From assembly GCA_016939335.1 (NCBI GenBank), contig JAFGHC010000039.1:2376-66375 (forward strand): DNA of 64,000 nucleotides, read 5' to 3'. The position numbers and the translations under genes were made by a program. Numbering within the stretch: position 1 is the stretch's first letter; each line of letters begins with the position of its first letter. Positions 4,908 through 50,351 of the stretch are shown here, in pieces. Under the pieces are notes generated by a model that was not told where the DNA came from, ran no database searches, and worked only from the letters and a program-made list of their open reading frames with translations. Source of the stretch: Candidatus Saganbacteria bacterium. GTDB lineage: Bacteria; Margulisbacteria; WOR-1; O2-12-FULL-45-9; XYB2-FULL-48-7.

Positions 4908-7648
<2,741 letters not shown>

Positions 7649-7755: not shown

Positions 7756-7828
7756 TGGAGCTGATGGGAGTTGAACCCACGACCTCTTGACTGCCAGTCA
7801 AGCGCTCTCCCAACTGAGCTACAGCCCC
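7756..7828 (-). tRNA. tRNA-Ala (anticodon GGC)
   Basis: Reverse complement GGGGCTGTAGCTCAGTTGGGAGAGCGCTTGACTGGCAGTCAAGAGGTCGTGGGTTCAACTCCCATCAGCTCCA; G3:U70 alanine identity pair; anticodon loop CT-GGC-AG. Confidence 0.85.
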
Positions 7829-7922
7829 ACACCCGCCTGCGGCGGTAAATTCAAAGTTCAAATTTCAGGGCCCCAAACAAATCAAAGATCACAGGCACAA
7901 ACATAACATTATAACACTTCTG

Positions 7923-8306: not shown

Positions 8307-8309
8307 TGA

Positions 8310-9194: not shown

Positions 9195-9778
9195 AGTTTT
9201 GCCGAACCCCGCCTGCCGGCAGGCAGGTAATAGTTGCGCGTGACGACCGTCGGCGGATAGATCGGCCGCCCCTGTTTGACCAGGAACCGGATCATGGCCG
9301 AGGCCGATTCATAAATTGCCCTGTCGAGGTCGCGGAACGCCAGCCGCCGCAGTTTGTCTACCCCCGTAAAAGCCCGCCCTTCCTCGATGTGGTCGGCCAG
9401 GTAGATGATCTTGTCGAGCTTGGTCATCCCCGGCGCCCCCGTCGTGTGGCGGCGGATCGCGTTCAGGACGCCGGCCGACCTGACGCCGAACTCGCGCCGC
9501 GCCAGCCAGGCGCCGATCTCGCCGTGAAAGAGCTTGGGTTCGAATTTCCTGATGGGATCGATCAGCAGGCCGAGCCGCCGGGCCTTTTGCAAAAGCTCTT
9601 TCCGGTCATAGCGCCGCGCGCAGTCATGAAGCAGGGCCGCCAGCGACGCTTTTTTCTGGCCGACCCCGAACTTTTTTGCCAGGGCCAGGGCGATCTTTTC
9701 CGCTCTCAGACTGTGTGTGAACCGCTCGCGACCGAGTTCGGCCTCAAGTTTTTCGACGATCTCTTTTCGTTCCAGCAT
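9191..9778 (-). CDS. yqeK: HD-domain bis(5'-nucleosyl)-tetraphosphatase YqeK
   Basis: HSLRAEKIALALAKKFGV...LLHDCARRY HD motif; about 195 aa. Confidence 0.75.
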   Translation of the reverse strand: MLERKEIVEKLEAELGRERFTHSLRAEKIALALAKKFGVGQKKASLAALLHDCARRYDRKELLQKARRLGLLIDPIRKFEPKLFHGEIGAWLARREFGVRSAGVLNAIRRHTTGAPGMTKLDKIIYLADHIEEGRAFTGVDKLRRLAFRDLDRAIYESASAMIRFLVKQGRPIYPPTVVTRNYYLPAGRRGSAKL

Positions 9779-9800
9779 TAAGTTTTAGAGCGCTTTCAGG

Positions 9801-9847
9801 CCAAAAAAATACCAAGGCGGCAAAGACGGCCCGGCCTTGGTTTTTCG
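9801..9847 (-). terminator. rho-independent terminator (also reads as a hairpin plus T-run on the + strand)
   Basis: Stem CCAAGGC...GCCTTGG (9813-9840). On the minus strand it is followed by TATTTTTTTGG (complement of 9801-9810); on the plus strand it is followed by TTTTTCG. It lies downstream of the minus-strand oxidoreductase/radical-SAM operon. Confidence 0.6.
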
Positions 9848-9888
9848 CGAAAGGGTTTACAAAAAGCGCGTCCTCATCGAATGATTGA

Positions 9889-10752
9889 TTATAACTTTGA
9901 CGGCCGGAGTTTGTCAAGAGCGAAAGCAACTTCGAGCGCGCAGTCAACATTGGACGGGCCGCCTTGGGCGATCATTTGATAAAAAGCTTCGGCGGCCTGA
10001 GCAAGGTTGTCCTGTTCGCCGGGAGCGGAAAACATGTCGTATCCGGCGGCCCCCCGGCTGCCGTAAATTTCTATTTTTCTGGTTTTGTCCGGGCTGTGCA
10101 AGTTTAGGATCATCAGGCCGTTAAATGGCAGGGAATTATGCGTGAAGAAGATCAGTCCGCTTTCGGCGACGCCTTTTTGGGTTGAGGTGTCACTGCTGCT
10201 GAAGGAAAATTCATGGAGCGGGGCAAGCATGTTCAGTATGCTCAACATATGGCTGCCCAGGGTCAAATACACTCCTTCGGGTTTGAGCCGCCCGGGCTGG
10301 CCCATCTCAAAAGAGGCCGAAACCAGGCTGCCGATCTGTCCCGACCGGGCGGCCGCTACCATGTTCCTGACGCCCCGGGAAAAGGTAAAAGTAAAATCGA
10401 CCATGATCTTGAGCCCTTGCGAATCAGCTAAGACTTTCAGGCGCTCGGCTTCGGCGGCAGTTTCGGTGAAAGTTTTCTCGCAGAAAAGATGCTTGCCCGC
10501 GGCCAGAACTTTGCCGGCCAGCTCAAAGTGTGTCGCGACGGGGGTTGCGACGATGACGGCCTGAATATTCCTGTCTGTCAGGACATCTTCGGCCGTGGTC
10601 AGCCTGATCGCTGCTTTGCCCCGCTCTTTGGCCGCGTCCCGGACCGCGACCTTGGTCAGCTCAAAGCCGGGATGGGAGGTAAAATAGCGGTGGAGCTTTT
10701 GCCCCCAGTAACCGTAGCCGATCTGGCCGAGCCTGATCCGTTCGCCGGTCAT
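9889..10752 (-). CDS. Gfo/Idh/MocA family NAD(P)-dependent oxidoreductase
   Basis: N-terminal Rossmann signature MTGERIRLGQIGYGYWG. ATG at 10752 overlaps the stop of the upstream radical-SAM gene. The track extension to 10848 is an overlap artefact. Confidence 0.75.
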   Translation of the reverse strand: MTGERIRLGQIGYGYWGQKLHRYFTSHPGFELTKVAVRDAAKERGKAAIRLTTAEDVLTDRNIQAVIVATPVATHFELAGKVLAAGKHLFCEKTFTETAAEAERLKVLADSQGLKIMVDFTFTFSRGVRNMVAAARSGQIGSLVSASFEMGQPGRLKPEGVYLTLGSHMLSILNMLAPLHEFSFSSSDTSTQKGVAESGLIFFTHNSLPFNGLMILNLHSPDKTRKIEIYGSRGAAGYDMFSAPGEQDNLAQAAEAFYQMIAQGGPSNVDCALEVAFALDKLRPSKL

Positions 10753-27790: not shown

Positions 27791-29207
27791 TCGCCTTGTC
27801 CAGCCTCGCGCCGACCTTCTCTTTCCCCAGAATGGCGACCACATCGTACATCGGCGGGGTTTCGGCGCGGCCGGAGAGGGCGAGGCGGCACGGGTGGATG
27901 ACGGCGCCGAGTTTCAGCTTCATCTCTTCTGCCAGAGTTTTGAAAACCGGCTCGATCTTCTCTTTGGCGAAAGGCTCAAGCGCGGCCAGGCGGTCCTTCA
28001 AAGTCGTCAGGATAACTTTTGCGTTCGCCGTCTTAAAATGCTTCTCGGCCGCCTTGGGGTCATATTCAAAATCATCTTTAAAGAAATAAGCCGAGAGCCC
28101 GACGATCTCGGGGATGAGGACCAGCCGGTCCTGGAAGACCGCGACGACTTTTTTCATGTACGCCAGGTCGTGCCTGCCGTAAGCGTCGATGAGGAGCGGT
28201 TCGCACAGGTCGAAGAGCCGCTCCGGCAGCAGCTTGCGGATATACTGGCCGTTCAGCCACTTGAGCTTTTCCATGTCGAAGACCGCCGGGTTCTTCGTCA
28301 CCCCGTCGAGCGAAAAGAACTCGATCAGCTCCTGCCGGGAAAAGACCTCCTGGTCGCCGTGCCCCCAGCCGAGCCGGGCGATGTAATTGATCATCGCTTC
28401 GGGCAGATATCCCAGGCCGTTGTACTCGATGACCGAGGTCGCGCCGTGCCGCTTCGACAGCCGCGCTTTGTCCCGGCCGAGGATCATCGGCAGGTGGGCG
28501 AATTTGGGGAGCGCCCAGCCGAACGCCTGGTATAATAAAATTTGGCGCGGCGTGTTGGAAAGATGGTCGTCCCCGCGGATGACGTGCGAGATTTCCATCA
28601 GGTGGTCGTCGACCACGCAGGCGAAATTGTAGGTCGGGAAGCCGTCCGACTTCAAGATGACGAAGTCGTCGAGCACTTCGTTCTGGAAAACGACCCGCCC
28701 GCGGACCAGGTCGTCGACCGCCGTCTCGCCGACCGGCGGCAGCCGGAACCGGATGACGTACGGCGTCCCGGCGGCCAGTTTGGCCTTGAGCTCTTCGGCG
28801 GAGCGTTTGCGGCAGGTGCCGTCGTAGCGCGGCGCCTCTTTTCTGGCTTCGGCTTCTTTCCGGCGCTGCGCTAGCTCTTCCGCCGTGCAGAAACAGTAGT
28901 AGGCTTTGCCTTCGTCGACCAATTGTTGCGCGTATTTCTGGTGGAGCGCCAATCTTTCCGTTTGGTAATAGGGGCCGAATGGGCCGCCGGTGTTGGGACC
29001 TTCGTCCCAGTCGATCCCCAGCCATTCGAGGCCGTGAAAGATCGCTTTGTTGGCCTCAAGCGTCGAGCGCTCCCGGTCGGTGTCCTCGATCCGCAGGATG
29101 AACTTGCCGTTCAGGTGGCGGGCGAAGAGCCAATTGAAGAGCGCGGTCCGCGCGCCGCCGATGTGCAGGGCGCCGGTGGGGCTGGGTGCAAAGCGTACTC
29201 GTACCAT
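27777..29207 (-). CDS. gltX: glutamate--tRNA ligase
   Basis: MVRVRFAPSPTGALHIGGARTALFNWLFARH (HIGH motif) and KLSKRHG (KMSKS). Confidence 0.9.
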   Translation of the reverse strand: MVRVRFAPSPTGALHIGGARTALFNWLFARHLNGKFILRIEDTDRERSTLEANKAIFHGLEWLGIDWDEGPNTGGPFGPYYQTERLALHQKYAQQLVDEGKAYYCFCTAEELAQRRKEAEARKEAPRYDGTCRKRSAEELKAKLAAGTPYVIRFRLPPVGETAVDDLVRGRVVFQNEVLDDFVILKSDGFPTYNFACVVDDHLMEISHVIRGDDHLSNTPRQILLYQAFGWALPKFAHLPMILGRDKARLSKRHGATSVIEYNGLGYLPEAMINYIARLGWGHGDQEVFSRQELIEFFSLDGVTKNPAVFDMEKLKWLNGQYIRKLLPERLFDLCEPLLIDAYGRHDLAYMKKVVAVFQDRLVLIPEIVGLSAYFFKDDFEYDPKAAEKHFKTANAKVILTTLKDRLAALEPFAKEKIEPVFKTLAEEMKLKLGAVIHPCRLALSGRAETPPMYDVVAILGKEKVGARLDKAIAAL

Positions 29208-29222
29208 GTATAATATTCTATC

Positions 29223-31613
29223 ATGTTATTAAGGCAGGCGATCGTTTGTTGCTTGCTGGCGGCGCTTGCTGGCGCGTCTTTCGCCGACGACCTTGGCCAT
29301 CTGCTCTTGAAAGGCGGCGTCAGCACGCGCGCGCTCGGGATGGGCGGGGCGTTCTCCGCCGTGGCGGACGACGCCGGCGCCGTCTTCTGCAATCCGGCCG
29401 GGCTGGCCGAGCCGGGGTTCGGCTACACCACCGGCAGCCTTGATTCGCAGCTGACCAGGAACGAGTTCACTTACAGCGCGCTCAAACTTGGCTACCTCGG
29501 TTACTCCGAAGGGAAAGTGGCCGGCCCCGGCGTCGGTCAGGTCACTTTCTCCGCCTTTGGTTTCGGCAACCGCTACGGCTGGCTCAACTGGGGGACCAAT
29601 TACAAGACGTTTAGCGCGACGATCGGCGGAGCGGCCAGTGAAGGCTGGAGCGGCGATCTCGGCCTGCTGCTGCGCATCACGCCGCAGTTCAAGGTCGGGG
29701 TCGTGGCGCGCGAAGTCCTGACGACGCAGGCGCGGCTGGCGCCGGCTTCCCTGCGGCTCGGCCTCGGCTACAGGCCGTTCAACAATAATCAGCTCGTGCT
29801 GGCGGCCGACGCCGAGCTCTATCGCTCACTCCCTTACGAAGGCCACCTGGGGGTCGAATCGAGCCTGGTCCCGGGGCTGACTTTCCGCGGCGGCCTTGAC
29901 GGCAGCCACCCGACCGCCGGCGCTTCGCTCGACCTCGCCTTTTTCACGCTCGATTACGCGCTCCAGTTCCTCCCGGGCGACCAAAATATCCAGCGCTTCG
30001 AGGCGGGGCTGAAATTCAACCTTGGCCGCGAGCGCCCCTTCTCCTTTATCAAGCCGAAGGAATTCGTCATCATCGACGTCAACGGCTTGCTCAAGGGCGG
30101 GCAGTCGGAGATCAGCCTGCTCGGCGGCTACCGGTCGGGGCTTGATAGCCTGCTCGAGCAGGTCCGCGCCGCCGAAAAGGACGGCTCGATCGACGGGATC
30201 TTCCTCCGCCTGGGCGGCTTTTCCGGCGGGCTGGGGGGCGCGGCAGTCGTCCAAGAACTGCGCGCCGAGCTGCTGCGCGCCAAAAACAAGGGGAAGAAGA
30301 TTATCGCCTATGTCGAGGACTCGGCGCTCGGCGACGAATATTATCTTGCCTCGGTCGCCGACAAGATCGTGGCGGCCCCGGGGGCGGCGATCGGCGGCTT
30401 CGGCCGCAGCCTCGAGATTTACCGCTTCGGCGGCCTGTTCAAGAAATTCGGCGTCGATTACCAGGTGAAGTATAAAGGCAAGTACAAGTCTTCCTTCGAC
30501 TGGCTTGCCGGTTCGCTGAGCGCCGAGCAAAAAGAGATGATGGAAGGGCTCGTTGGCGATATTTACCGGCAGATGCTGACCGATATCGCGGCCAGCCGTA
30601 AGATGAAGATCGAGAAGGTCAAGGAGATCGGCGACGGGATGATCTTCCCGGCCGGCCTGGCGCTCAAGATGGGGCTGATCGACCGGGTCGGTTTCTTCCG
30701 CGACGCCTCGGTCGCCGCCAACGAGCTTTACGGCAACAAGGACGAAGTCAAGATCGTCCAGCCCAACCTGCTTGAGCCCGAAGAGTCGTTCTTCAGCCAG
30801 CTCTTCGGCGTGGCGGTGATCGAGGTTGACGGCGAGATCGTCGAGGGCGACAGCGGCCAGAACCTAGTCTTCGGCGGCAGCTATGTCGGCGCCGACAAGC
30901 TCGCGCGCGACATCCGCGGCGCGGCCGATGATCCGTTCGTCAAGGCGCTGCTCGTGCGCGTCAACAGCCCGGGCGGCTCGGCGGTCGCCGCCGGCGAGAT
31001 CTACCAGGCGCTCCAGTACGCGCGGGAAAAGAAAAAAGTCATTATCGCCTCGCTGGGCGACGTCGCCGCCTCGGGCGGCTATTATGTGGCGGTCGCCGCC
31101 GACAAGATCGTGGCCGATCCTTCCAGCATCACCGGCAGCATCGGCGTGATCGGCGCCTTCCCCGTCTATCACCGGCTGATGGAAAACTGGGACGTGGCCG
31201 CCGACGAGGTCAAGGAGGGGGCGCACGCCGACATGTTCTCCGGCCTCCGCCGCTTCTCGACGATCGAGAGCGAAGCGGTCGACCGGATCTTTGACGAAAC
31301 ATACCGGACGTTCGTCAATGCGGTGGCGGCCGGCCGGAAGCTGGCGACCGCCGAAGTGGAAAAGCTGGCGCAGGGCCGCGTCTATACCGGCAACCAGGCG
31401 CTGGCGGTCAAACTGGTCGACAAGCTTGGCGGCTTCAGCGACGCGGTCGAACTGGCCAAGTCGGAGGGAAAGGTCAAAGGCGAGGTGCGGCTCATCTATT
31501 ACCGGCGGCTCAATCCGCTGCTGCAGTTCGGGCAGGGGGTCAGTTCAGCTCTCGGCTTCCGCCAGCCGTTGCTCGATCTGCCGGCCCTGGGCCGGACGTT
31601 ACAATATAAGTGA
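29223..31613 (+). CDS. sppA: signal peptide peptidase SppA (67K tandem-domain type) fused to an N-terminal PorV/FadL-like outer-membrane beta-barrel domain
   Basis: Residues 1-270: signal peptide, then GGVSTRALGMGGAFSAVADDAGAVFCNPAGLA (FadL/OMPP1/PorV-type N-terminal signature), alternating beta-strand pattern, ending ...EAGLKFNLG. Residues 280-796: two ClpP/crotonase-fold SppA repeats (GGFSGGLGGAAVV...IAYVEDSALGDEYYLASVADKIVAAP and LVRVNSPGGSAVAAGEIYQAL...IASLGDVAASGGYYVAVAADKIV). Confidence 0.75.
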   Translation: MLLRQAIVCCLLAALAGASFADDLGHLLLKGGVSTRALGMGGAFSAVADDAGAVFCNPAGLAEPGFGYTTGSLDSQLTRNEFTYSALKLGYLGYSEGKVAGPGVGQVTFSAFGFGNRYGWLNWGTNYKTFSATIGGAASEGWSGDLGLLLRITPQFKVGVVAREVLTTQARLAPASLRLGLGYRPFNNNQLVLAADAELYRSLPYEGHLGVESSLVPGLTFRGGLDGSHPTAGASLDLAFFTLDYALQFLPGDQNIQRFEAGLKFNLGRERPFSFIKPKEFVIIDVNGLLKGGQSEISLLGGYRSGLDSLLEQVRAAEKDGSIDGIFLRLGGFSGGLGGAAVVQELRAELLRAKNKGKKIIAYVEDSALGDEYYLASVADKIVAAPGAAIGGFGRSLEIYRFGGLFKKFGVDYQVKYKGKYKSSFDWLAGSLSAEQKEMMEGLVGDIYRQMLTDIAASRKMKIEKVKEIGDGMIFPAGLALKMGLIDRVGFFRDASVAANELYGNKDEVKIVQPNLLEPEESFFSQLFGVAVIEVDGEIVEGDSGQNLVFGGSYVGADKLARDIRGAADDPFVKALLVRVNSPGGSAVAAGEIYQALQYAREKKKVIIASLGDVAASGGYYVAVAADKIVADPSSITGSIGVIGAFPVYHRLMENWDVAADEVKEGAHADMFSGLRRFSTIESEAVDRIFDETYRTFVNAVAAGRKLATAEVEKLAQGRVYTGNQALAVKLVDKLGGFSDAVELAKSEGKVKGEVRLIYYRRLNPLLQFGQGVSSALGFRQPLLDLPALGRTLQYK

Positions 31614-31857
31614 TGTCGTCAGGGTAGATCATCCCCAGCTTCGTTTTTGCCGTTTTTTCGATATAAGCGAGGTCCTCTTCCCGGGCCGCCTGGCTTCCCA
31701 GCGTCCGCGCCAGGCTGCTCAATTCCGCCCGCTTGATCTTCAGGTCGGTGATCCGGTAGGTCAGCGCCATGTTCTGCGCGTACATGTATAAATGGGCGGC
31801 GGCCAGGACCAGGAAGAGGATGAGGACCGCGACCGCTTTCCGGAAATTACTGTTCAT
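31540..31857 (-). CDS. ftsL: FtsL-like cell-division protein (single TM)
   Basis: MNSNFRKAVAVLILFLVLAAAHLYMYAQNMALTYRITDLKIKRAELSSLARTL: short cytoplasmic tail, TM helix and coiled coil. Immediately downstream of rsmH with an ATGA overlap. C-terminal part has low-complexity composition and overlaps the sppA 3' end convergently. Confidence 0.5.
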   Translation of the reverse strand: MNSNFRKAVAVLILFLVLAAAHLYMYAQNMALTYRITDLKIKRAELSSLARTLGSQAAREEDLAYIEKTAKTKLGMIYPDDITYIVTSGPGPADRATAGGSRELN

Positions 31858-32723
31858 AGTTTCTCCGCCGCCCGCAGCTTGGCGCTCCGCGCCCGCGGGT
31901 TGCCCGCCAGTTCGGCCACCCCGGCCGTCACCGGCTTTTTGGTCAGCGGCTTCAGTATACCATTTTGGGCGGCTGACCTGAACAGCCGCTTGACGGCCCG
32001 GTCCTCCAGCGAATGGTAAGAAATAACGACGAGCCGCCCCCCCGGTTTGAGGAGCCCCAGCGCCTGGCCAAGCGCCAGTTTCAAGCTGTTCAGCTCGTCG
32101 TTGACGGCGATGCGCAGCGCCTGGAAGACGCGGGTGACCGACTCTCTTTTCTTCCACGTCGGGATCGCCTTTTCCACGATCCCTTTTAACTCAAAGGTGC
32201 TTGTCACGGGCCGCGAGTCGCGGGTCGCGACGATCGCCTTGCTGATCCGGCGGGAGAACTTCTCTTCCCCGCACTCATAAAAGAGCTTCGTCAGCTCTTC
32301 GGCCGGCCAGTTATTGACGATCTCGGCGGCGGTCAGCTTGCCGCGCCGGTCCATCCTCATGTCGAGCGGCCCGTCATGCTGCAGGCTGAAGCCGCGCCCC
32401 CCTTCGTCGAGCTGGTAGGAGGAAACTCCGAGGTCAAAAAGTATCCCGTCGACTTTTTCTTTGACGTGCTCTTTTAGGCGCGCGAAGTTATCGTGGACGT
32501 ATTCGATGTCCGAAAAGCCGGCTAAGTTCTTCCGGGCAGCTGCCAACGCGTCGGCGTCCCGGTCAAAGCCGATAATTTTGATTTTTGATCTTTGATCTTT
32601 GATTTTAGACGCGTGCCCCCCGCCGCCCAGCGTTGCGTCCACAAAAACCTTGCCGTCCGCCGGTTTCAGGAACGCCGCCGCCGCTTCGGCCAGCACGGGC
32701 TCGTGTTGATAGGCAATGGTCAT
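31854..32723 (-). CDS. rsmH: 16S rRNA (cytosine1402-N4)-methyltransferase
   Basis: GGGGHASKI...IGFDRD and DLGVSSYQLD motifs. An in-frame ATCAAAG x4 heptamer tract lies at 32575-32606. Confidence 0.85.
   Translation of the reverse strand: MTIAYQHEPVLAEAAAAFLKPADGKVFVDATLGGGGHASKIKDQRSKIKIIGFDRDADALAAARKNLAGFSDIEYVHDNFARLKEHVKEKVDGILFDLGVSSYQLDEGGRGFSLQHDGPLDMRMDRRGKLTAAEIVNNWPAEELTKLFYECGEEKFSRRISKAIVATRDSRPVTSTFELKGIVEKAIPTWKKRESVTRVFQALRIAVNDELNSLKLALGQALGLLKPGGRLVVISYHSLEDRAVKRLFRSAAQNGILKPLTKKPVTAGVAELAGNPRARSAKLRAAEKL
32575..32606 (-). repeat. tandem heptanucleotide tract (ATCAAAG / ATCAAAA x4 on the coding strand) inside rsmH
   Basis: Plus strand TTTTGATTTTTGATCTTTGATCTTTGATTTTA. It encodes SKIKDQRSKIKI between the GGGH and IDRD motifs. 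Confidence 0.7.
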
Positions 32724-35105: not shown

Positions 35106-36152
35106 ATGGCTGCTTCGGCTTTGTACCTGAAGGGCAACTATTCAAAACGCTTTTACCCGCTGCTGATCGATAAAAGAGTCATCGCGAGCGACCCCCGGCT
35201 GCACGCGACTCCCGGCGTCAGGGCGCAGGTCAGGCGGGCCGGTGATTTTATCATTGATCTGACGACGGAGGGGGTGCAGACAAGGGAACAAGGTATTATG
35301 CCGTTCCCCTCAATTTATATCAGGCTTGCGCACGGCCATGGCAATGAAGGAGTGCGCCAGATATTTTCGACCGAGGAGGAACTTGACCGGCTCGGCGGTC
35401 CGTTCGACCTTGCCGCGCGGGTCGTGTCAGGGGCGTTTTTCGTTTACCGGGGCGGTTTGCGCGGCGCGGAGATCATGGTATCGCCCGCCTGGCATGAATT
35501 GCTGGAACCCGACTGGCGCCAGGCCCAGCATGTCTGGGTGCGCGATCCCGTCGCCAACCCGGAGCCCGATCCACCCGGCTTGCCCTGGCGGACGATCCCT
35601 TATTTTCTGCCGGTCCCGGGGATGGTGCTCAAGGCGAGTTTTATGGAAAACAGCCAAAAGATCGTCCGGGGCGAGTTCTTTTTCCGGACGGTGAACGGCC
35701 AGGCGCGCGGCTTTTTTCGTTATAACGGGACGGCCCGCACTTATTTGATCCGGCCTGACAAGATCACGTATCTCGGCGATGAACAGGCGGGGCGTGCCAG
35801 CTTCGAGCTGGCGAAGTTCAGGACGATGCTGGGCGAGCGCCCTGCGCTAACCGACTACTCATTCTATAAAAAATGCTGGGGCGAACAGATCCAATTTGGC
35901 GATAAACTGCTCATCTTTATCCAGCCGGCCGATTTCCAATTCCTGGACAGGGAAGGGGTCTATTTCTTACGGTTGGTCCGGCACGAGCGCGATCTTTATC
36001 TTTTTTGTCACCGGGACGCTTCCTCCCCGCGTCCGCTCGCCTGGGGCTGCCGGTTCCTGACCGAAGATGGGCAGCTGCCGCTCAGTCCGTTTATGACCGC
36101 CCGCCGCCCTGAGGATAATATGCCGGAGTTTGGTATAATAGCGAACACCTAA
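35106..36152 (+). CDS. hypothetical protein
   Basis: 348-aa ORF with GC-rich codon usage; no recognisable motifs. Bracketed by family-1 repeats at 34561 and 36153. Confidence 0.5.
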   Translation: MAASALYLKGNYSKRFYPLLIDKRVIASDPRLHATPGVRAQVRRAGDFIIDLTTEGVQTREQGIMPFPSIYIRLAHGHGNEGVRQIFSTEEELDRLGGPFDLAARVVSGAFFVYRGGLRGAEIMVSPAWHELLEPDWRQAQHVWVRDPVANPEPDPPGLPWRTIPYFLPVPGMVLKASFMENSQKIVRGEFFFRTVNGQARGFFRYNGTARTYLIRPDKITYLGDEQAGRASFELAKFRTMLGERPALTDYSFYKKCWGEQIQFGDKLLIFIQPADFQFLDREGVYFLRLVRHERDLYLFCHRDASSPRPLAWGCRFLTEDGQLPLSPFMTARRPEDNMPEFGIIANT

Positions 36153-41322: not shown

Positions 41323-41455
41323 ATCAAATCACAAATAACAAACAATACCAAATTACCGGAATTCGAATGACTAAAACAGGCAACGTTTATTTCATTGGGT
41401 AATTGTGGTTTGGGATTTGTTTGTTATTTGATGCTTGTGATTTGTTATTTTGTTA
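41323..41455. repeat. family-2 AT-rich MITE-like element, copy B
   Basis: CACAAATAACAAACAATACCAAATTACCGGAATTCGAATG...GTTTGTTATTTGATGCTTGTGATTTGTTATTT; aligns with copy A at 25062-25197. Confidence 0.7.
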
Positions 41456-41465
41456 TACTGGCCCC

Positions 41466-42779
41466 ATGGTTGGCATGGATAAACAGGCCGCTCTTGACGC
41501 TTGCCTGACTCGCCTCGGGATCAAACTTTCCGATGTGGTGGAGAAGTTTATCCATTCGGGCGGCCCCGGCGGCCAGAACGTCAATAAGGTCGCCAGCGGC
41601 GTCTATCTCAAGCATCTGCCGACCGGCCTCGAGGTCAAGATGAGCCGCGCCCGCTCGCAGGCGCTCAACCGCTTCCTCGCCTGGCGGCTGCTGGCCGACA
41701 AGCTCGCGGCCCGGCTCCTCGGCAAGAAGAGCGCCGAACGGGCGAAGGCCGAAAAACTCCGCCGCCAGAAGCGCCGCCGCTCCCGCCGCGCCAAAGAAAA
41801 AGTTTTGCGGGAGAAAAAGCTGACCGCCGAAAAGAAACGCCTCCGCCGGCGGCCGCTCTTCTTGCTCTGTCTGGCCGTCCTGCTGACCGCGGCTGCCGCC
41901 TGGGCGGCCGTCCCGTCACTGGCCGGCCTGATGCAGCGCGATTATCACGGACGCGATCTGCAGCTGAAAAAAGTCCTGGCCGAGAACAACGTTTACACCC
42001 GCTATCTCATCACTTACAAAAGCGATGACCTGACGATCTCCGGCATCATGAATTTGCCGAAGGGGAAGGGGCCGTTCCCCGTCCTGATACTTAACCACGG
42101 CTTCATCGATCCGAAAATCTATACGAACGGCCGCGGCTTGAAGCGCGAACAGGATTATCTGGCGCGCCGTGGTTATATAGTGATTCATCCCGATTACCGC
42201 AATCACGCGTTTTCCGATCAGGACCCGGACGACCTGGCCGGCTTCCGGCTCGGCTACGTCATCGACGCGATCAACTGCGTCATGGCGGTCAAGGGGAGCG
42301 ACAAGCCGTATTTCAATAAGGAGAAGATCGGGCTGCTGGGCCATTCGATGGGGGGCGGGGTCGTCCTGAACTTTCTGGCCGTGAAACCCGGGCTGGCCAA
42401 AGCGGCGGTCCTTTTGGCGCCGGTCAGCGCCGATTACCGCGACAATTTCACCCGCTGGCTCTGGCGGCGCAAGCGCCATCCGGAAGTGGCTGAAAGAATC
42501 ATCGCCGAATACGGCTCGCCCGAATCAAACCCCGCCTTCTGGGCCGGCCTCTCGGCCGTCAGTTACTTAAATAATGTTAAGGCGCCGGTCATGCTCAACC
42601 ACGGCACCGCCGACGAGTCCGTCCCCTTTGACTGGTCGGTCCGGCTGGAAAAAGAGCTGAAGGCCCGCGGCAAAAGCGTCGTCTTCTACCGGTATCCCGG
42701 CGAGCGCCACGAGTTCGGCCCGCAGTGGCCGCTCATGATGGCGCGGATCGTCAAGTTCTTTGACGGATATTTAAAATGA
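41466..42779 (+). CDS. in-frame fusion: ArfB-like GGQ-domain peptidyl-tRNA hydrolase, basic tail, TM helix, alpha/beta-hydrolase (S9/dienelactone-hydrolase-like)
   Basis: N-terminus SGGPGGQNVNKVASGVYLKH (class-I release-factor GGQ domain), then the basic tail KKSAERAKAEKLRRQKRRRSRRAKEKVLREKKLTAEKKRLRRR. Then hydrophobic PLFLLCLAVLLTAAAAWAAV, then a hydrolase with nucleophile elbow GHSMGG and a C-terminal HGTADESVP ... ERHEF triad region. No stop codon between the parts. Confidence 0.55.
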   Translation: MVGMDKQAALDACLTRLGIKLSDVVEKFIHSGGPGGQNVNKVASGVYLKHLPTGLEVKMSRARSQALNRFLAWRLLADKLAARLLGKKSAERAKAEKLRRQKRRRSRRAKEKVLREKKLTAEKKRLRRRPLFLLCLAVLLTAAAAWAAVPSLAGLMQRDYHGRDLQLKKVLAENNVYTRYLITYKSDDLTISGIMNLPKGKGPFPVLILNHGFIDPKIYTNGRGLKREQDYLARRGYIVIHPDYRNHAFSDQDPDDLAGFRLGYVIDAINCVMAVKGSDKPYFNKEKIGLLGHSMGGGVVLNFLAVKPGLAKAAVLLAPVSADYRDNFTRWLWRRKRHPEVAERIIAEYGSPESNPAFWAGLSAVSYLNNVKAPVMLNHGTADESVPFDWSVRLEKELKARGKSVVFYRYPGERHEFGPQWPLMMARIVKFFDGYLK

Positions 42780-43599: not shown

Positions 43600-44313
43600 G
43601 TGAAATTTTCCGGCCGGGGCGCCGAAAGAAAGAAGATGGCAACAACACAAACGGCAAGGATCAGGGAGCATGTTCCGGGGATCAGCCCCCGCACCCGTAA
43701 TGGCAAGGGCGCAGCTGCCAGGTTGGCGCGCTGGGAACCGCTGGAAACTTTCCATATCTCGAGTCTTGATCTTCGCCTCAAAGCCGAACGCTTGTATCTT
43801 CTGGCTAGGACAACGGGAGAGGGCGCCGACCGGAGATTTAAGGAAGCGATCGAACTCCAGGTCGGGACCCTCGGTTTTGGCTTGGCGGATATAAATATCT
43901 GGGGCCGTCTCCTGCAGTGCTTCGCCGGGAAAAATAATCCTCAAGCCAGCGCCCGGCTGTTGACCTCGCTCGGCTCTCTTTTGTGCGCCAGCCCGCAAAT
44001 GGGCGTAAATCCCGACCAGAGACGGGCGGAAACCGTCCGGTTTCTCGGCGACCTCCTTTTCGCTTATGATGCGAGCATTATTAATGATCTCCTTAGCCGT
44101 CAGGCCGATCCGCTCATGGTGAGCGTGGTCGAGGCGCGCGCCGGGATCAATTTGAGACAGGTTGTGGCGCTGTTAAGGGCGGAGAACGTTGATCCGGGGT
44201 TCGCCCGCGCCCTGCTGGCCCGGCTCCGGGGGAGCCAAACTTACGATGCTTTGGCTGCCAAACTGCCGCCCGAGGTACTGGCAAGGATAGCGCCTCCGGC
44301 GACGGCTCCGTGA
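43600..44313 (+). CDS. hypothetical protein
   Basis: 237-aa ORF; start may be the internal ATG (MATTQTARI...). No recognisable motifs. Confidence 0.45.
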   Translation: MKFSGRGAERKKMATTQTARIREHVPGISPRTRNGKGAAARLARWEPLETFHISSLDLRLKAERLYLLARTTGEGADRRFKEAIELQVGTLGFGLADINIWGRLLQCFAGKNNPQASARLLTSLGSLLCASPQMGVNPDQRRAETVRFLGDLLFAYDASIINDLLSRQADPLMVSVVEARAGINLRQVVALLRAENVDPGFARALLARLRGSQTYDALAAKLPPEVLARIAPPATAP

Positions 44314-44355: not shown

Positions 44356-44453
44356 TATTAATGTACAAAGGGAAAGAATCGCACTGGTTAAAACCTCGCA
44401 ATTCTCTTCACTTCGGACGATTAATAATTTCCAAATTAATGAGGAGGAGTCAA

Positions 44454-45824
44454 ATGAAAAAGGTATTTCTGTTCTTATTTTTGGTGATCATGGTCGGGGC
44501 GGCTTTTGGCATTGCCGTGCCCAAACTGTCGGCGGTCCCGGAGAAATTATCTTATGAAGGGAGACTGCTCGACTCCGCCGGCAATCCGGTGATTGCCGCC
44601 AAGACCTTTGACGTCAGGATCTACGATGCCCCGACCGGCGGCAACGCCGTCTGGGGGCCCGAGAGCCAGACGGTCACGCCGAACGAACAGGGGGTTTTCA
44701 GCCTGATCTTGGGTGATAGCGTGCCGGTCACCGCCGCGGTCTTCAGCGGAACACCCCGATACGTCGAAGTCACCGTTGCCGGTGAAACGATCTCCCCCCG
44801 CACCCAGCTTGTCTCCGTCGGCACCGCTTTAAAAGCGGCGGTCGCGGAGAGCGTGGATAATGGTTCGATAACGAATAACAGTCTTGCCAACGCCACGATC
44901 CAGAACACTAAAGTTGCCCCCGGCCAATTTGTCAAACAGATCGTGGCCGGCGCCGGCATCGGCGTTTCCGATGATGAAGGCGGCGGCACCGGGATTGTGA
45001 CCCTGACGGCGACCGGCACCAGCGGCGGCACCGTCACGCGGGTCAATGCCGGGACCGGTTTGCTTGGCGGGCCGATCACGTCAAGCGGCACGATTTCGGT
45101 GGATGTCGGCACCGGCGCCCGCAAGATCGTTCAGCTTGACAATTTTGGAAGATTACCGGCGGTCAATGGTTCAAATTTAACGGCGCTGGATGCCGACAAC
45201 ATTTCCAGCGGCACGCTCGACGAAAGACGGGGCGGGACCGATCAATCAAGTTTTGCTCGCGGCGACATTCTTTACGCTTCAGGAACGAATAGATTGTCGA
45301 GATTGTCAATTGGCTCGAGCGGGCAAGTCCTGAAGGTCAGTGGCGGAGTACCCACCTGGAGTACTGGAGCAGCTGGCCCTGCCGGACCGCAAGGGCCGAC
45401 CGGCGAGGCCGGACCGAAGGGTGACAAAGGTGAGAAAGGTGATCCTGGGCCAGCCGGAGCCGATGGTGTTGCCGGACCAGCCGGGCCGATGGGGCCGACC
45501 GGCGAGGCCGGACCTGCGGGGACGGGGGGGAATGCTGACACAGTTGGTGGCAAATATTTCCTGGCCAAAACCGCCACTTGGATGTCAACGGCCTCGAGTA
45601 CTAAAACAATTACTGATTCCGATGTCACAACCGGGAGTATTATTATTGTTAATCTGGTCGATCAACCAGCCCCAGCATGGGGTTCTTCTTATAAATATAT
45701 TAGCAAAGTTGTTCCGGGCGACCAAGCTTTTACCTTAACTTTTGATGGAAATTTAAGGAACAATCAATCGCACACCGTAAATTATATTGTTATTAATAGT
45801 AGCGCGGCTCCTATACCGCAATAA
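44454..45824 (+). CDS. secreted collagen-like triple-helix repeat protein with a tail-fibre/BclA-like N-terminal region
   Basis: Signal peptide [19 protein letters not shown]. Uninterrupted G-X-Y run [50 protein letters not shown]-terminal globular domain about 110 aa. The track ORF starts 31 codons earlier at 44361. Confidence 0.75.
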
Positions 45825-45859: not shown

Positions 45860-46693
45860 ATGGGCCGAAATTTGGTTTTACTGTTACTGCTCGCTCTGCT
45901 GATCGGCAGTCCGGCCGCCGCATACCAGATCACCGGCGGCGCGGCCAACAGCGGCTCGCTTGCGGGCGGTTCGGCCGGCTACAACATCCAGGGCGCCGGC
46001 TACGGCTCGGCCGGCACGTTCGGCACCAGCAGCGGCTATTCGCTCTTTTCCGGCTCGGCTAACTGGCTGCTCTTGTTCACCACCGCCGCCAGCGCCACGT
46101 TCGATACGCCGGCGATCCTCTCCATCACTCCCGACGCCGGCCCGCCCGGCGCCAAGTTCACCGTCATCGGCAGCAAGTTCGGCGCCGCCCAGGGGGGCAG
46201 TTCACTCGTTTTTGAAAATGATCTCACCCACATCACTTACACGGCTGCCATCCTCTCCTGGAGCGACACGCTGATCGAGGCGATCAGGCCGAACCTGGCG
46301 ACGTCCGGCAGCTACACCGTCAAAGTCATCAGGAGCACGTTCTTGAGCGGCGCCACCTACTTTGTTGATTCAAATGCCGTCGCCCAGCGGATCAACGCCG
46401 CCGCGGCGGGAGAGGCGACCGTCTATCCCAATCCGTTCAACCCGCTGGCGGCGCCGATTAATCTGCTGATCGCCAATACCAGCGGGGCGACTAACGTCGG
46501 CTTTTACATATATGATATGACCGCGGAACTGGTCAGCCGGCAGATCGTCAGCGCCGCCCCTTATTCGGTCACCTGGGACGGCAAGGACCGGTCCGGCGCC
46601 CAGCTGGCCGACGGCGTCTACCTGCTGCGGGTCGTCAACGAAGATACCCATGCCCTGATCGCCAAAGGGAAGATCTTGCTGGTGAAGAAGTAA
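45860..46693 (+). CDS. secreted Gly/Ser-rich protein with an IPT/TIG-like domain and a T9SS-type (Por_Secre_tail-like) C-terminal sorting domain
   Basis: Signal peptide. SITPDAGPPGAKFTVIGSKFG (IPT-like). C-terminal about 85 aa ATVYPNPFNP...VGFYIYDMTAELVSRQIV...VTWDGKDRSGAQLADGVYLLRVVNEDTHALIAKGKILLVKK fits the VYPNP...YD..G......WDG.D..G..L..GVY..R..LL(K) CTD pattern. Confidence 0.65.
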   Translation: MGRNLVLLLLLALLIGSPAAAYQITGGAANSGSLAGGSAGYNIQGAGYGSAGTFGTSSGYSLFSGSANWLLLFTTAASATFDTPAILSITPDAGPPGAKFTVIGSKFGAAQGGSSLVFENDLTHITYTAAILSWSDTLIEAIRPNLATSGSYTVKVIRSTFLSGATYFVDSNAVAQRINAAAAGEATVYPNPFNPLAAPINLLIANTSGATNVGFYIYDMTAELVSRQIVSAAPYSVTWDGKDRSGAQLADGVYLLRVVNEDTHALIAKGKILLVKK

Positions 46694-46694
46694 A

Positions 46695-48515
46695 ATGAAA
46701 CAATTCATGATTTTAGCTTTGTGCCTCTGCCTGGCCTCCGCCGCCGGGGCGGTGGGCAGCCTTAGCGATCCGCTGGCGATCGGCGTCGGCGCGCGCGCCC
46801 TCGGCATGGGGAAAGCTTACGTCGGCCTGGCGGAGAACAGCGACGCCCTCTTCATGAACCCGGCCGGGTTGGCCCGGATCAACGGCCTGCAGTTCTCCAG
46901 CATGTCCGGCTCGCTGCTCGGCGAGGTCAATTACCAGCTCGGCGGCGTGGTCTATCCGCTCGGCGGCCTTGGCACGGTCGGCTTCGGCTACGTCGGCACT
47001 TCGGTCGGCGGCATCCAGTTCACCGACGCGACCGCCGCGCCGACGGGGACCGGCGACTGGGGCAATAGCGTCATGTTCCTCTCCTACGGTTCACAGTTGC
47101 TCAATACGCCGCTCCTCTTCGGCGGCAGCCTCAAGTACTTTAAGGTCGGGGGGAGCGGCACGGCCGACGCGGTCTCCGCCGCCGGCTCCGGCTACGACCT
47201 CGACCTCGGCCTGCTTTATCCGGTGAACGGCTTCACTACGCTCGGCGCCAACTGGCAGGACTGCCTCCCCGCTTCGCTCGGCGGCAAGATCAGCAAGACG
47301 GCGGGCGACGAAAATATCCCCGCCACGTTGAAGCTGGGCGGCAAGATGACCTTGCTCGGCCGGGAAGGAGAGGCGCTGCTGGCCAGCAATTCGCGCCGCC
47401 TCTACGGCTGTCTGGATTACGATCTCTGTCAGAATTCCGGTAAGACCGGCGCGCTCCACGCCGGGCTCGAATTCTGGCCGAGCCGCAATTTCGCGTTGCG
47501 GGCCGGCAGCGACAGGAGCGACCTGACCGCCGGGGTCGGCCTCCGCTTCTCCGGCTTTGAGTTCGATTACGCCTACCATCTCTACGGCGAGATCAGCGAG
47601 AACGCCACCCATTACTTCTCGCTCGCTTACCTCGGGGAGGGGCCGACCGAGCTCAACGTGAAACTGAATACGCCGCGCGACCATATGGTGGTTTACGACG
47701 ACCATGTTTCGCTCTCGGGCCAGGTCAAGGCGCTGACCGATGACGGCTGGGAAAAAGACGGGCCGTTCAAGGTCAAGGTCAACGGCCAGCCGCTCCAGCT
47801 CCTTCCCGGCAACAGTTTTGAGAGCGAAGTGCCGGTCGAGAGTTACGGCAAGAAGAAGCTGGTTGTCGAGGTCGTCGACGACGGCGGCAACCGCCGCGTG
47901 GCCGAGCTCGAGATCGTCCGGCTGACCGCCTTCGCCGACGTGCCCGACGGCTACTGGGCGAAACAGTCGATCGAACGGAACGGCACGCTCGGGCTGGTCC
48001 CCGGCTACGCCGACGGCACGTTCAAGCCGGAAAACCCGCTGACCCGGGCCGACATGGTCGCGCTCCTCCTGCGCGCCAAAGGTTTGACCCCGCCGGCCGA
48101 AGGGACCGCCAAGGCCGTGTTCAAAGATGTTAAGCCCGATTTCTGGGCGGCCAAATACCTTGAGCTGGCCTGGAAAGAAGGGCTGGTCAGGGGCTATCCC
48201 GACGGCACTTTCCGGCCGAACAATCACACTTCGCGGGTCGAGAGCGTCGTGCTGATGACCCGGTTTGACGGGGTCCGGCCGGTCGCGATGGTCGAGGGAA
48301 GACCGTACAATGATGTTGCGGCCGACCACTGGGCGGCCGGCTCCGTTGCCGCCGCGCGCGACGCGGGGATGATCGGCTTCACTTCAGCCAACCGCTTGGA
48401 ACCGCAGGCCGCGGTCACCCGCTCGCAGCTCGCCGACATGTTCTCCCGCACGGCGGTGGCGGGCGGCCGGATCAAAGACCTCCTGACCTGGGAAAAAGGC
48501 CGGACCGGCTACTAA
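46695..48515 (+). CDS. outer-membrane PorV/FadL-like beta-barrel fused to three C-terminal SLH domains
   Basis: Signal peptide. GVGARALGMGKAYVGLAENSDALFMNPAGLA (same signature as the sppA N-domain). Barrel about 300 aa ending ...HYFSLAYL. Ig-like linker, then three SLH repeats (FADVPDGYWAKQSIER..., FKDVKPDFWAAKYLELAWKEGLVRGYPDGTFRPN..., YNDVAADHWAAGSVAAARDAGMI...). Confidence 0.7.
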   Translation: MKQFMILALCLCLASAAGAVGSLSDPLAIGVGARALGMGKAYVGLAENSDALFMNPAGLARINGLQFSSMSGSLLGEVNYQLGGVVYPLGGLGTVGFGYVGTSVGGIQFTDATAAPTGTGDWGNSVMFLSYGSQLLNTPLLFGGSLKYFKVGGSGTADAVSAAGSGYDLDLGLLYPVNGFTTLGANWQDCLPASLGGKISKTAGDENIPATLKLGGKMTLLGREGEALLASNSRRLYGCLDYDLCQNSGKTGALHAGLEFWPSRNFALRAGSDRSDLTAGVGLRFSGFEFDYAYHLYGEISENATHYFSLAYLGEGPTELNVKLNTPRDHMVVYDDHVSLSGQVKALTDDGWEKDGPFKVKVNGQPLQLLPGNSFESEVPVESYGKKKLVVEVVDDGGNRRVAELEIVRLTAFADVPDGYWAKQSIERNGTLGLVPGYADGTFKPENPLTRADMVALLLRAKGLTPPAEGTAKAVFKDVKPDFWAAKYLELAWKEGLVRGYPDGTFRPNNHTSRVESVVLMTRFDGVRPVAMVEGRPYNDVAADHWAAGSVAAARDAGMIGFTSANRLEPQAAVTRSQLADMFSRTAVAGGRIKDLLTWEKGRTGY

Positions 48516-48604
48516 GCCCGGCCTCGCCGCCCCCCGCTCCGCATCGAATCCTTGGCACTAAATTCTCCGCGCTGTGCTATAATCCCGGCCAGAGGTGAGC
48601 TTAA

Positions 48605-49636
48605 ATGAAAAAGAAAGCCCTGGTCTCCGCCGTCTTTGGCCCGGTAATGATCGTTGCCTGCGTTCTGCTCGTCGTTCACGGTTGCGGCCAGACGGGAGGG
48701 GGCGGCAGTGCCGGCATCCAGTCGATCAGTTTTTACAGCGTGGGGGCCAGCACCACCCCCGTTTTTGATCCGCTCGCTTCGGCCTCTGCTGCCATCTCCG
48801 GCGGCTGGGGTTCGGGCAATACCATGTATGCGCTTTATTACACGCTCCGGGAATATGTCAACAGCCGCGACGGCGGCACGATCGACCGGGCGAACCTTTA
48901 CCGTCTGCTCTACGACGTTGAAACGCTTTTCAGCGCCATGACCCACCAGGTCGTTGCCTTGCCGTCGGCGGAGGTGATCGCGCCGCCGTTCGATTTCGGC
49001 AATAATCTTGCCTATTCGGCCGCGCTCAATAACGAGACCGAAAAAATGGCCGCCGCCATGACCCAGGAAGGGAACGTTACTAAAGGGATCGTTTCCTGGA
49101 TCTGGACCGAAAGCTCCGACGGCCACAAAGAGTACGGCGTCCTCGAGGCGGTGATGGACCAGAGCACCAAGGATATCACCGTCGATTTCGTCTTCAGCGT
49201 CGATTACACACCGGGCGACACGACTTGCGATTACAACAACCGGACCCATATTTCCGGCAACTCCGATACGCACGCTTTCCAGTTCGTCCAGACGCTCGGC
49301 AACACCGGCGAGGCCGTCACCCAGCTGGTCGGCAAGGGCGTTTCCCGGGGGGCGGGGAACTATTTCCTCTTCAAGGTGCAGAGCAGCAACGGCGACGGCT
49401 TCGGTTCGCCGCTCTACGTGGTGCTGAGCGCCGAAGCGGACGAGGCGACGCTCAAGAACTTCGACGTTTCCGCCGAAGCGTATAGCAGCGCGGCCAGCCT
49501 GCCGGCCAGCGTGGCGTCTTATGTGAATTATGTCGAGAACACGCCGTTCTTCGCCTGGTCGGACCTTTTGGTCGATCTCAACGACCTTAATCGCGGCATC
49601 ACCGGCAAACAGGGCACGATCTATCTTAATTACTGA
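48605..49636 (+). CDS. hypothetical lipoprotein/secreted protein
   Basis: Signal peptide with lipobox-like LVVHGCG, then a Gly-rich linker GQTGGGGSAG; 343 aa; no known domain. Confidence 0.5.
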   Translation: MKKKALVSAVFGPVMIVACVLLVVHGCGQTGGGGSAGIQSISFYSVGASTTPVFDPLASASAAISGGWGSGNTMYALYYTLREYVNSRDGGTIDRANLYRLLYDVETLFSAMTHQVVALPSAEVIAPPFDFGNNLAYSAALNNETEKMAAAMTQEGNVTKGIVSWIWTESSDGHKEYGVLEAVMDQSTKDITVDFVFSVDYTPGDTTCDYNNRTHISGNSDTHAFQFVQTLGNTGEAVTQLVGKGVSRGAGNYFLFKVQSSNGDGFGSPLYVVLSAEADEATLKNFDVSAEAYSSAASLPASVASYVNYVENTPFFAWSDLLVDLNDLNRGITGKQGTIYLNY

Positions 49637-49637
49637 C

Positions 49638-50351
49638 CTGAGGCTTAAATTCACTGCCGGCATTTTGCTCCTGATGCTGGCCGCGCCCGCGCCGGCGGAA
49701 ACGGTCATCGACCGCAAGCTCTCCCTCGGCGGCAAGCTGGCCGCCGGCAACACCGACCTCCAGTCGGTCAGCTTCGTCTTCCGGCTCAACCGGAACCGGC
49801 GGCTGACCGACGAGACGACGCTCAAGGGGCGGTTCGACCGCGAGTACGCCGACGGGCTGGAAACGGCTTACAAGCTTTACGGCTCCGGCCGCTACGCCCG
49901 CTCCTGGAACGAGCGGCTGTACAATTATTATAAGCTGGAAGCGGAGCACGACCGGTTCCAGGACATCGCCCTCCGGCTGATCCCAACGGTCGGCCTCGGC
50001 TACTGGTTCGCGACCGGCGCGGAGGAGAGCGCCATGATCGAGGCGGCGGCCGGCTACCAGTGGGAAAGCCTGATCAGCCGTGAGGAGCGGGACGTTCTCC
50101 TCCTGACCGTCAGCGCCGATTACGGCCGCGGGCCGTTCTCCAACGACTTCGACCTCTACCTGGCGGCCGGCGACCTTGCCAATTACCGTTTCACCAACCT
50201 GGCCGGGCTGGCCGCCAGGCTGAACGGCCGCTTCGCCCTCAAGCTGACGCTCAAGGAAGAGTACAACAACCGGCCCGCCGCCGGCGTCGAACGCAACGAC
50301 CTGGTCCTGACCGTGGCGCTGGAGTATTCGTCCAGGGGCCAAGAAGAGTGA
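49638..50351 (+). CDS. DUF481 (YdiY-like) outer-membrane beta-barrel protein; start uncertain
   Basis: Signal-like LKFTAGILLLMLAAPAPAETV, then DUF481-type repeats, C-terminal aromatic-rich strand LTVALEYSS. The track ORF begins at 49530 inside the previous gene; the true start is probably a non-ATG codon near 49638-49665. Confidence 0.5.
   Translation: MRLKFTAGILLLMLAAPAPAETVIDRKLSLGGKLAAGNTDLQSVSFVFRLNRNRRLTDETTLKGRFDREYADGLETAYKLYGSGRYARSWNERLYNYYKLEAEHDRFQDIALRLIPTVGLGYWFATGAEESAMIEAAAGYQWESLISREERDVLLLTVSADYGRGPFSNDFDLYLAAGDLANYRFTNLAGLAARLNGRFALKLTLKEEYNNRPAAGVERNDLVLTVALEYSSRGQEE

Follow-up and report, generated by a model that had tools for sequence, protein, structure and literature searches.

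A conserved fusion of signal peptide peptidase SppA to a predicted outer-membrane barrel

Signal peptide peptidase SppA is a textbook inner-membrane enzyme. We analyzed an SppA gene in a 64,000-nucleotide stretch of a Candidatus Saganbacteria bacterium genome (GenBank assembly GCA_016939335.1, contig JAFGHC010000039.1, positions 2,376 to 66,375 of the forward strand; hereafter the window), in which the protease follows an N-terminal domain predicted to be an outer-membrane beta-barrel. Canonical SppA is tethered by an N-terminal transmembrane helix, forms a tetramer whose periplasmic Ser-Lys sites lie well away from the membrane, and works on peptides that have already been released from it (PMC9360617). 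Among described barrels, the PorV- and PorP-like proteins of type IX secretion systems (T9SS) serve as anchors or partners for other proteins (PMC9143113). Full-text literature searches brought up no account of SppA joined to an outer-membrane barrel, to PorV or to FadL. The barrel-SppA architecture is undescribed but conserved, while the sequences themselves are public and annotated as SppA.

The gene is a single uninterrupted open reading frame (ORF) with an ATG start; its segments are listed in Table 1. An earlier note on this DNA, made from the letters alone, had taken it for one gene, and the frame agrees: 29980..30120 reads straight through, with no stop or frame break around 30030-30070. 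The encoded protein is 100% identical to the public record 'MAG: signal peptide peptidase SppA [Candidatus Saganbacteria bacterium]' (MAG, metagenome-assembled genome), which lies on a 68.9-kb contig.

A full-length AlphaFold2 model, built from 55 sequences, had a mean pLDDT (predicted local distance difference test) of 85.4. Conservation, measured as the mean majority-residue frequency over the homologue alignment, was 0.29 in the signal peptide, 0.62 in the plug that precedes the barrel, 0.47 in the barrel, 0.56 in the linker, 0.60 in SppA and 0.32 in the tail. By this alignment measure, the selective constraint on the barrel is similar to that on the protease. The homologues all start with a hydrophobic segment ending in A-x-A-like residues. 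In the models aa 17-21 form a low-confidence (disordered) segment after the hydrophobic helix, and signal-peptide cleavage would fall before the DD, after aa 21. Model confidence is also low (pLDDT <50) at aa 778-796 in the tail and at aa 272-275 in the linker, though the linker sequence is conserved (RPFSxIKPK).

Table 1. The barrel-SppA fusion gene, its segments, the second barrel protein of the window, and fusion loci in species-representative genomes
Feature	Position	Strand	Residues or length	Remarks
Whole barrel-SppA fusion gene	29223..31613	+	796 aa plus stop	Single ORF
Predicted Sec signal peptide	29223..29285	+	aa 1-21	MLLRQAIVCCLLAALAGASFA; hydrophobic helix aa 2-16
Plug ('hatch') segment	29286..29417	+	aa 22-65	GMGGA...NPAGLA; short helices in both models
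N57-P58-A59 of the plug	29391..29399	+		
Compact 14-stranded beta-barrel (predicted)	29418..30017	+	aa 66-265	Two AlphaFold2 models
Linker between barrel and protease	30018..30059	+	aa 266-279	NLGRERPFSFIKPK
SppA N-terminal S49 repeat	30060..30806	+	aa 280-528	K422 at 30486..30488
SppA C-terminal S49 repeat	30807..31550	+	aa 529-776	S617 at 31071..31073; best PF01343 stretch aa 601-751
C-terminal tail	31551..31610	+	aa 777-796	Low confidence, poorly conserved
PorV/PorQ-family barrel plus SLH protein	46695..48515	+	606 aa	Barrel aa 27-312, middle domain of ~90 aa, three C-terminal SLH
Fusion locus L001			801 aa	Margulisiibacteriota
Fusion locus L002				Saganbacteria
Fusion locus L004			855 aa	Eisenbacteria
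Fusion locus L011			823 aa	Unclassified MAG
Fusion locus L014			827 aa	'delta proteobacterium' MAG; probable fusion

SppA part. By its sequence, the C-terminal two thirds of the protein is a complete two-repeat enzyme, as the earlier note had held, and it looks active. Pfam PF01343 (Peptidase_S49) matches two stretches (E 8.1e-76), and so does TIGR00706, the SppA domain model (286 bits; cutoff 155). Against the 67K-type model TIGR00705, aa 309-762 align with profile positions 80-538 and score 271 bits, below the equivalog cutoff of 311.45, because the first 80 profile positions (the anchor region) are without a counterpart here. Foldseek comparison of the model with E. coli SppA (3bf0, 3bez) gave E ~7e-41 over ~505 columns, with template modelling (TM) scores of 0.84-0.86 normalised to the target. 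In a phmmer alignment S617 and K422 fall on 3bez chain positions 384 and 184 (construct offset +25), which we take to be the E. coli nucleophile Ser409 and general base Lys209. The dyad is intact, and both residues are invariant in 55 homologues. The canonical N-terminal inner-membrane helix is not present; the models show in its place a cleavable-looking signal peptide and a putative 14-stranded barrel.

N-terminal part. The signature quoted in the earlier note, GGVSTRALGMGGAFSAVADDAGAVFCNPAGLA, occupies aa 31-62. Across the full-length alignment of 55 homologues N57 and P58 never vary and A59 hardly does; in the N-domain alignment R36, G39, G41, N57, P58 and L61 are invariant. The plug is the most conserved part of the N-domain. 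An AlphaFold2 model of the N-domain alone, from 27 sequences, reached a mean pLDDT of 88.8 and a predicted TM score (pTM) of 0.82. In two independent AlphaFold2 runs DSSP assigned exactly 14 strands between aa 66 and aa 265 (block pLDDT mostly 82-96), and both runs place short helices at aa 24-62, carrying GMGGA...NPAGLA, before strand 1. The predicted barrel is minimal, with 200 residues and no connecting loop longer than 8 residues. Its final strand 14 ends in F265, so the aromatic-terminal last strand of the earlier note is confirmed, and a soluble N-domain is contradicted by the predicted barrel. Among PDB structures, Foldseek matched the N-domain model best to E. coli FadL, TodX and an FadL homologue from P. 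aeruginosa, with E from 1e-6 to 4e-5 and query-normalised TM scores of 0.52-0.57; 14-stranded OmpG followed closely. All of the best 50 matches listed were outer-membrane barrels.

The fusion recurs. With a limit of E 1e-5, a word-indexed homologue search returned 129 proteins. Over 100 clusters of ~760-820 aa, from independent assemblies (JGI, ENA, NCBI, Logan), matched with 93-100% coverage and 30-79% identity, and the named full-length homologues were nearly all Saganbacteria, Margulisbacteria or WOR-1. The four shorter 'SppA-only' matches that we inspected (549-595 aa) all start inside the last barrel strands, so they are truncated calls or fragments. Joining of an outer-membrane protein gene to an adjacent sppA by a sequencing or assembly frameshift or a missed stop has a negligible chance of explaining the gene. 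Stand-alone barrels do exist, making a two-gene ancestor plausible, but the frame is continuous, the linker is conserved, and the fusion is seen down to 30% identity and as a single ORF in loci L001, L004, L011 and L014. The same fusion in more than 100 independent homologues rules out such an artefact.

Fusions in taxa other than Saganbacteria and Margulisbacteria, which the earlier note had left to be searched for, were found in Eisenbacteria, Spirochaetia and Myxococcota MAGs. Besides the loci of Table 1, the cluster members include named fusions from Myxococcota (MDY0060541.1) and Spirochaetia (MDH5721492.1). A hidden Markov model (HMM) of the N-domain matched the distant N-termini of L011 (1e-50), Eisenbacteria (2e-16), Spirochaetia (2e-15) and Myxococcota (1e-8). 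L014, which carries a signal peptide and the motif NPAGIG, does not match this HMM. The other 75 loci of the same scan, Bacteroidota and Cyanobacteria among them, carry ordinary SppA with ~50-140 residues ahead of the protease domain; in L041 a plain transmembrane helix is seen there. A neighbour-joining tree of the SppA domains, built to see whether the fusion arose once, is unresolved: the fusions cluster loosely, with the transmembrane-anchored L041, L072 and L030, and also L014, nested among them, and an exclusive fusion clade appeared in 0 of 100 bootstraps.

Barrel family. We built a profile from 27 N-domains and ran it over 1.84 billion representatives; 24,377 proteins matched with E no higher than 1e-3, and 7,122 with E no higher than 1e-10. 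The best 150 matches comprise 39 SppA fusions, 73 barrel-only proteins (some of them fragments) and 38 with another C-terminal extension. We examined 50 relatives drawn from the best matches that were not SppA-sized (E ~1e-30). PorV_fam matched 46 of them (best E 1.3e-50), PorQ 39 and PorV 34; among Pfam families, UPF0164 matched 18 and Toluene_X (FadL) 13. TPR repeats were present in 18 of the 50 and OmpA domains in a few, C-terminal to the barrel. A barrel followed by a C-terminal periplasmic module is a recurrent design in the PorV/PorQ/FadL superfamily. PorV was defined in Bacteroidota; the compact PorV/PorQ-like barrel forms a very large family (>24,000 representatives), carrying TPR, OmpA, SLH or SppA, well outside that phylum. 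Three of the 50 relatives also match NCBIfam C39_PA2778_fam, a cysteine peptidase family, which could mean that other peptidase types are fused to the barrel or just that TPR regions are shared.

The barrel also occurs by itself. P0139 is a complete stand-alone barrel gene of 275 aa, and the complete stand-alone barrels P0141 and P0149 (279-280 aa) lie directly after FGGY-kinase and TsaD-family genes in loci L081 and L084. The order FGGY kinase, TsaD-family gene, barrel spans 4029..6840 in L081 and 350..3377 in L084; it spans 5728..10250 in L011, where the barrel carries SppA. Because the stand-alone barrels hold the same position as the L011 fusion, the barrel is an autonomous module, and the locus suggests gain or loss of the SppA half.

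We think it probable that this is a real single-gene SppA whose transmembrane helix has been replaced by a signal peptide and an outer-membrane barrel, placing the protease on the periplasmic face of the outer membrane. The earlier note had proposed an SppA anchored in the outer membrane by its own barrel, and the single ORF, the conserved fusion, the modelled barrel and the intact dyad support it. The single reading frame, the conservation of the fusion, the predicted folds, the catalytic residues and the barrel-family homology come from the analysis itself; the outer-membrane location, periplasmic orientation, oligomeric state and substrate we infer. The precursor would be exported by Sec and its barrel inserted into the outer membrane by BAM, with strand 14 ending on the periplasmic side. 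With an even strand count, the C-terminus should emerge on the side where strand 1 begins, which is the periplasmic side in known outer-membrane proteins. The two-repeat SppA would then be suspended from the outer membrane's inner face by a linker of ~14 residues, probably as a tetrameric bowl by analogy with E. coli SppA. Ser617/Lys422 would cleave hydrophobic peptides, for example released signal peptides, by unchanged SppA chemistry, with the barrel acting mainly as an anchoring module. We regard the breakdown of hydrophobic peptides in the periplasm as the most likely function, the barrel serving as anchor.

Two further points are in keeping with this. Saganbacteria and Margulisbacteria are reported among clades with OmpM-type outer-membrane tethers, which combine SLH with a barrel (bioRxiv 10.1101/2021.05.31.446380), so an outer membrane is expected. 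And since canonical SppA acts on released peptides, far from the membrane, a swap of anchors would keep the enzyme in its compartment and move the tether to the opposite membrane.

The TPR, OmpA and SLH modules carried by the barrel's relatives are all periplasmic, which supports a periplasmic C-terminus and a periplasmic position for SppA. They bear also on an opposite topology, in which the N-terminal barrel would export the C-terminal SppA to the cell surface in the manner of inverse autotransporters (intimin/invasin). That order of barrel and passenger is the one of type Ve secretion, and invasin/intimin beta-domains are among the fold matches (4e1t, E 3.9e-5; 4e1s). We nevertheless hold surface display to be very improbable: the lumen is predicted to be filled by the barrel's own conserved plug, the linker has only ~14 residues, the barrel has 14 strands and FadL-family best matches whereas intimin and invasin barrels have 12 strands, and the peptidoglycan-binding OmpA and SLH modules of the sister architectures are necessarily periplasmic.

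A different role for the barrel would be that of a channel coupled to the protease. A FadL-like barrel would take in hydrophobic peptides or lipopeptides, whether from the outside or out of the outer membrane itself, and pass them to SppA, for nutrient uptake or for detoxification of membrane-active peptides. FadL-family channels for hydrophobic substrates are the best structural matches, the linker is short and conserved, the NPA plug is conserved beyond the apparent need of a passive anchor, and SppA of B. subtilis is reportedly linked to lantibiotic resistance. FadL, however, captures its substrate with extended extracellular loops, of which the barrel with its loops of at most 8 residues has no equivalent, and lets substrates go laterally, to the membrane rather than the periplasm. 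The minimal loops count against FadL-like substrate capture and equally against PorV-like binding of surface cargo. Fusion of the same barrel family to the non-enzymatic TPR, OmpA and SLH modules is better accounted for by an anchor role, and we consider the coupled channel unlikely.

Several results weigh against the reading of the protein as an SppA anchored by a PorV/FadL-like barrel. The structural evidence is all predicted, and so is the localisation. Solved PorV structures are not among the best 50 Foldseek matches. No Pfam family matches aa 1-300, even at E up to 1, and the gathering score of PF03349 is missed. Of the NCBIfam models, PorV_fam (NF033709) scores 30.1 bits against a cutoff of 90 (aa 29-163), PorVQ2 29.8 against 325 (aa 28-63) and PorQ 13 against 220. 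Alternating hydrophobic faces are clear in strands 6-14, but strands 1-5 are only weakly amphipathic; an odd/even hydrophobicity statistic fails to separate the barrel strands from those of SppA (2.30 vs 2.15) and was not used as evidence. The strong conservation of the plug in the alignment suggests that the barrel may do more than anchor, and together with the well-conserved linker it leaves room for a more active role. Lastly, the data give no reason for selecting an outer-membrane tether, nor do they point to a substrate.

Within the PorV/PorQ/FadL superfamily the N-domain forms a compact branch; we call it PorV/FadL-like and not a PorV, because the PorV/PorQ and FadL thresholds are missed and because it is much more compact than either. 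The FadL/OMPP1/PorV assignment of the earlier note therefore stands as to the 14-strand fold, the FadL best matches and the PorV/PorQ homology, and falls short as to the curated thresholds and Pfam. Searched against PDB sequences, the N-domain profile gave a marginal match to the plug of CymD (E 0.21) and one spurious match, so that the plug is the sole stretch with a (weak) sequence match to a solved FadL-family protein.

A bolder version of the anchored SppA is a dedicated protease machine, in which four plugged FadL-like barrels would hold the bowl of SppA so that its mouth abuts the outer membrane from the inside, clearing hydrophobic peptides. We offer this tentatively, as unlikely. If true, the peptides cleared would form at that membrane or cross it, for instance remnants from the biogenesis of outer-membrane proteins or lipoproteins, or membrane-active peptides that had been imported; several diderm phyla (Margulisiibacteriota, Eisenbacteria, some Spirochaetia and some Myxococcota) would do 'signal peptide peptidase' chemistry at the outer membrane; and PorV/PorQ-like barrels would serve in general as outer-membrane docking modules, in roles reaching well past type IX secretion.

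A second barrel protein is encoded in the window at 46695, and as the earlier note had recognized, it bears the same barrel signature. It matches PorV_fam (NF033709) over the full profile with 100.9 bits against the cutoff of 90, and SLH in three stretches (E 3.9e-27). BLASTP aligns it to the SppA N-domain over aa 8-249 (28% identity, E 3e-12), and it matches the profile of that domain with E 3e-26. This protein and the SppA fusion are the only two members of the barrel family in the window. Its order, barrel first and SLH last, is the reverse of that in classical OmpM tethers. The gene starts 2 nt after the stop of a TIG protein (45860..46693) whose C-terminal FlgD_ig/Por_Secre_tail-like domain is sub-threshold, and a collagen-repeat protein (44361..45824) precedes the TIG protein. 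The collagen-repeat, TIG and barrel-SLH genes look like a surface-structure or tethering operon.

These genes bear on a T9SS-like sorting hypothesis, which the earlier note had raised as speculative: the PorV-like barrel would bind C-terminal sorting domains (CTDs) of cargo, and SppA would remove or degrade them. PorV and PorP-like proteins, which bind CTD cargo, belong to the 14-stranded barrels of the FadL family (PMC9143113). PorV/PorQ are the curated families nearest to the N-domain, and the TIG protein with its CTD-like end lies directly upstream of a PorV-family gene. That CTD is however below threshold (Por_Secre_tail 19.3 vs 27 bits, TIGR04183 21.9 vs 23), and none of the window ORFs that we scanned encodes a core component of a T9SS. 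In T9SS the binding and cleavage of CTDs happen on the cell surface, while the SppA domain here is predicted to be periplasmic; PorV has long surface loops, which this barrel does without. The SppA gene itself lies 14 kb from the CTD and PorV-family genes, amid housekeeping genes. The cargo link is thus unsupported, and we regard T9SS-like sorting by the fusion as highly unlikely.

Gene neighbourhood. The window neighbours of the fusion, read from their translations, are housekeeping genes: gltX is divergent upstream, and rsmH and trpC lie downstream. L001 has the same layout by ORF size and orientation, with a divergent 476-aa ORF upstream in the place of gltX and ORFs of 291 aa and 255 aa downstream in those of rsmH and trpC. 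No consistent partner gene was found near the fusion in the window, L001, L004 and L011; the L011 neighbours are the FGGY and TsaD-family genes. In L004, the Eisenbacteria MAG, the fusion (7833..10400) has an Omp85-superfamily gene (6616..7821, +, 401 aa) directly upstream; the two share a strand and are 11 nt apart. This is a single case, not seen in the other loci.

The fusion start codon is 15 nt from the start of the divergent gltX (29207..29223). A perfect TATAAT at 29209-29214, 8 nt upstream of the ATG, has no -35 match, and a promoter scan gave no full sigma-70 match near the fusion start; with the TATAAT so close to the ATG, the transcript may be leaderless. At its 3′ end (31540..31613) the fusion gene overlaps, convergently, the end of a minus-strand ORF downstream of rsmH (31854..32723). 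This overlapping ORF looks FtsL-like by eye, and its plausible product begins MNSNFRKAVAVLILFLVL.

Elsewhere in the window, a 458-aa ORF with a TTG start (41403..42779, +) has three parts in frame without a stop: an RF-1/ArfB-like GGQ peptidyl-tRNA hydrolase domain (aa 39-133) and its basic tail, a hydrophobic signal-peptide-like segment, and an S9/alpha-beta-hydrolase domain (aa 215-457). Either this is an unusual fusion, or two genes have been read as one. The ORFs 35106..36152 (+, 348 aa), 43600..44313 (+, 237 aa) and 48512..49825 (-, 437 aa) had no Pfam or NCBIfam match at the thresholds used. The region 53200..55700 holds no ORF of at least 200 aa and several of 75-197 aa, and a check for repeat arrays gave only short two-copy matches. 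Over 54000..64000 the GC skew is persistently positive, at ~+0.15 to +0.17 in four of the five 2-kb bins, and eight + strand ORFs of at least 200 aa are found there.

A conserved SppA built onto a predicted outer-membrane barrel would mean that the anchoring membrane of this enzyme is not fixed, and raises the question of which peptides need clearing near the outer membrane in little-known diderm lineages. There is also a practical side. The precomputed Pfam annotation of the 120 homologues listed contains no barrel family; since the N-terminal barrel is invisible to Pfam, public records say plain 'SppA' and miss about a third of the protein. That the compact PorV/PorQ-like barrel is so large a family, and carries periplasmic modules repeatedly, is of use in annotating the outer-membrane proteomes of uncultured phyla and in considering the ways in which the outer membrane tethers periplasmic functions.

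Compared with E. coli SppA/protease IV (67K type, MEROPS S49; 3BF0/3BEZ), the Saganbacteria protein has the same two tandem S49 repeats (fold TM 0.85), with the Ser nucleophile in the C-terminal repeat and the Lys base in the N-terminal repeat, and is predicted to hold the same periplasmic catalytic domain on a short linker to a membrane anchor. The difference is in the anchor, where the inner-membrane helix is replaced by a signal peptide and a barrel domain of ~245 residues, predicted to sit in the outer membrane.

With PorV, PorQ and PorP-SprF it shares the superfamily by profile, the 14 strands and the N-terminal GMGGA...NPAGLA motif. It is smaller, with ~245 mature residues against profile lengths of 326-367, and has minimal loops. 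The partners of PorV-type barrels in T9SS are non-covalent and on the surface, whereas the partner here is covalently fused and predicted periplasmic, outside any T9SS context among the window ORFs scanned. With FadL, TodX and CymD (PF03349) it shares a plug with an NPA motif near the mature N-terminus; P58 is at about residue 37 of the mature protein, and a FadL P34A mutant structure is among the Foldseek matches. The FadL chains among the matches have 365-444 residues, against a barrel of ~200 residues here that is modelled without extended extracellular loops, and such short loops argue against a FadL-like extracellular substrate-binding groove. The design as a whole, an outer-membrane barrel carrying a periplasmic module, is shared with OmpA-type and OmpM/SLH tethers, and the window gene at 46695 uses it with SLH domains. 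The module of the SppA fusion is a peptidase and not a peptidoglycan-binding domain, and the predicted barrel is 14-stranded and FadL-like, where that of OmpA has 8 strands and that of OmpM is of the porin type.

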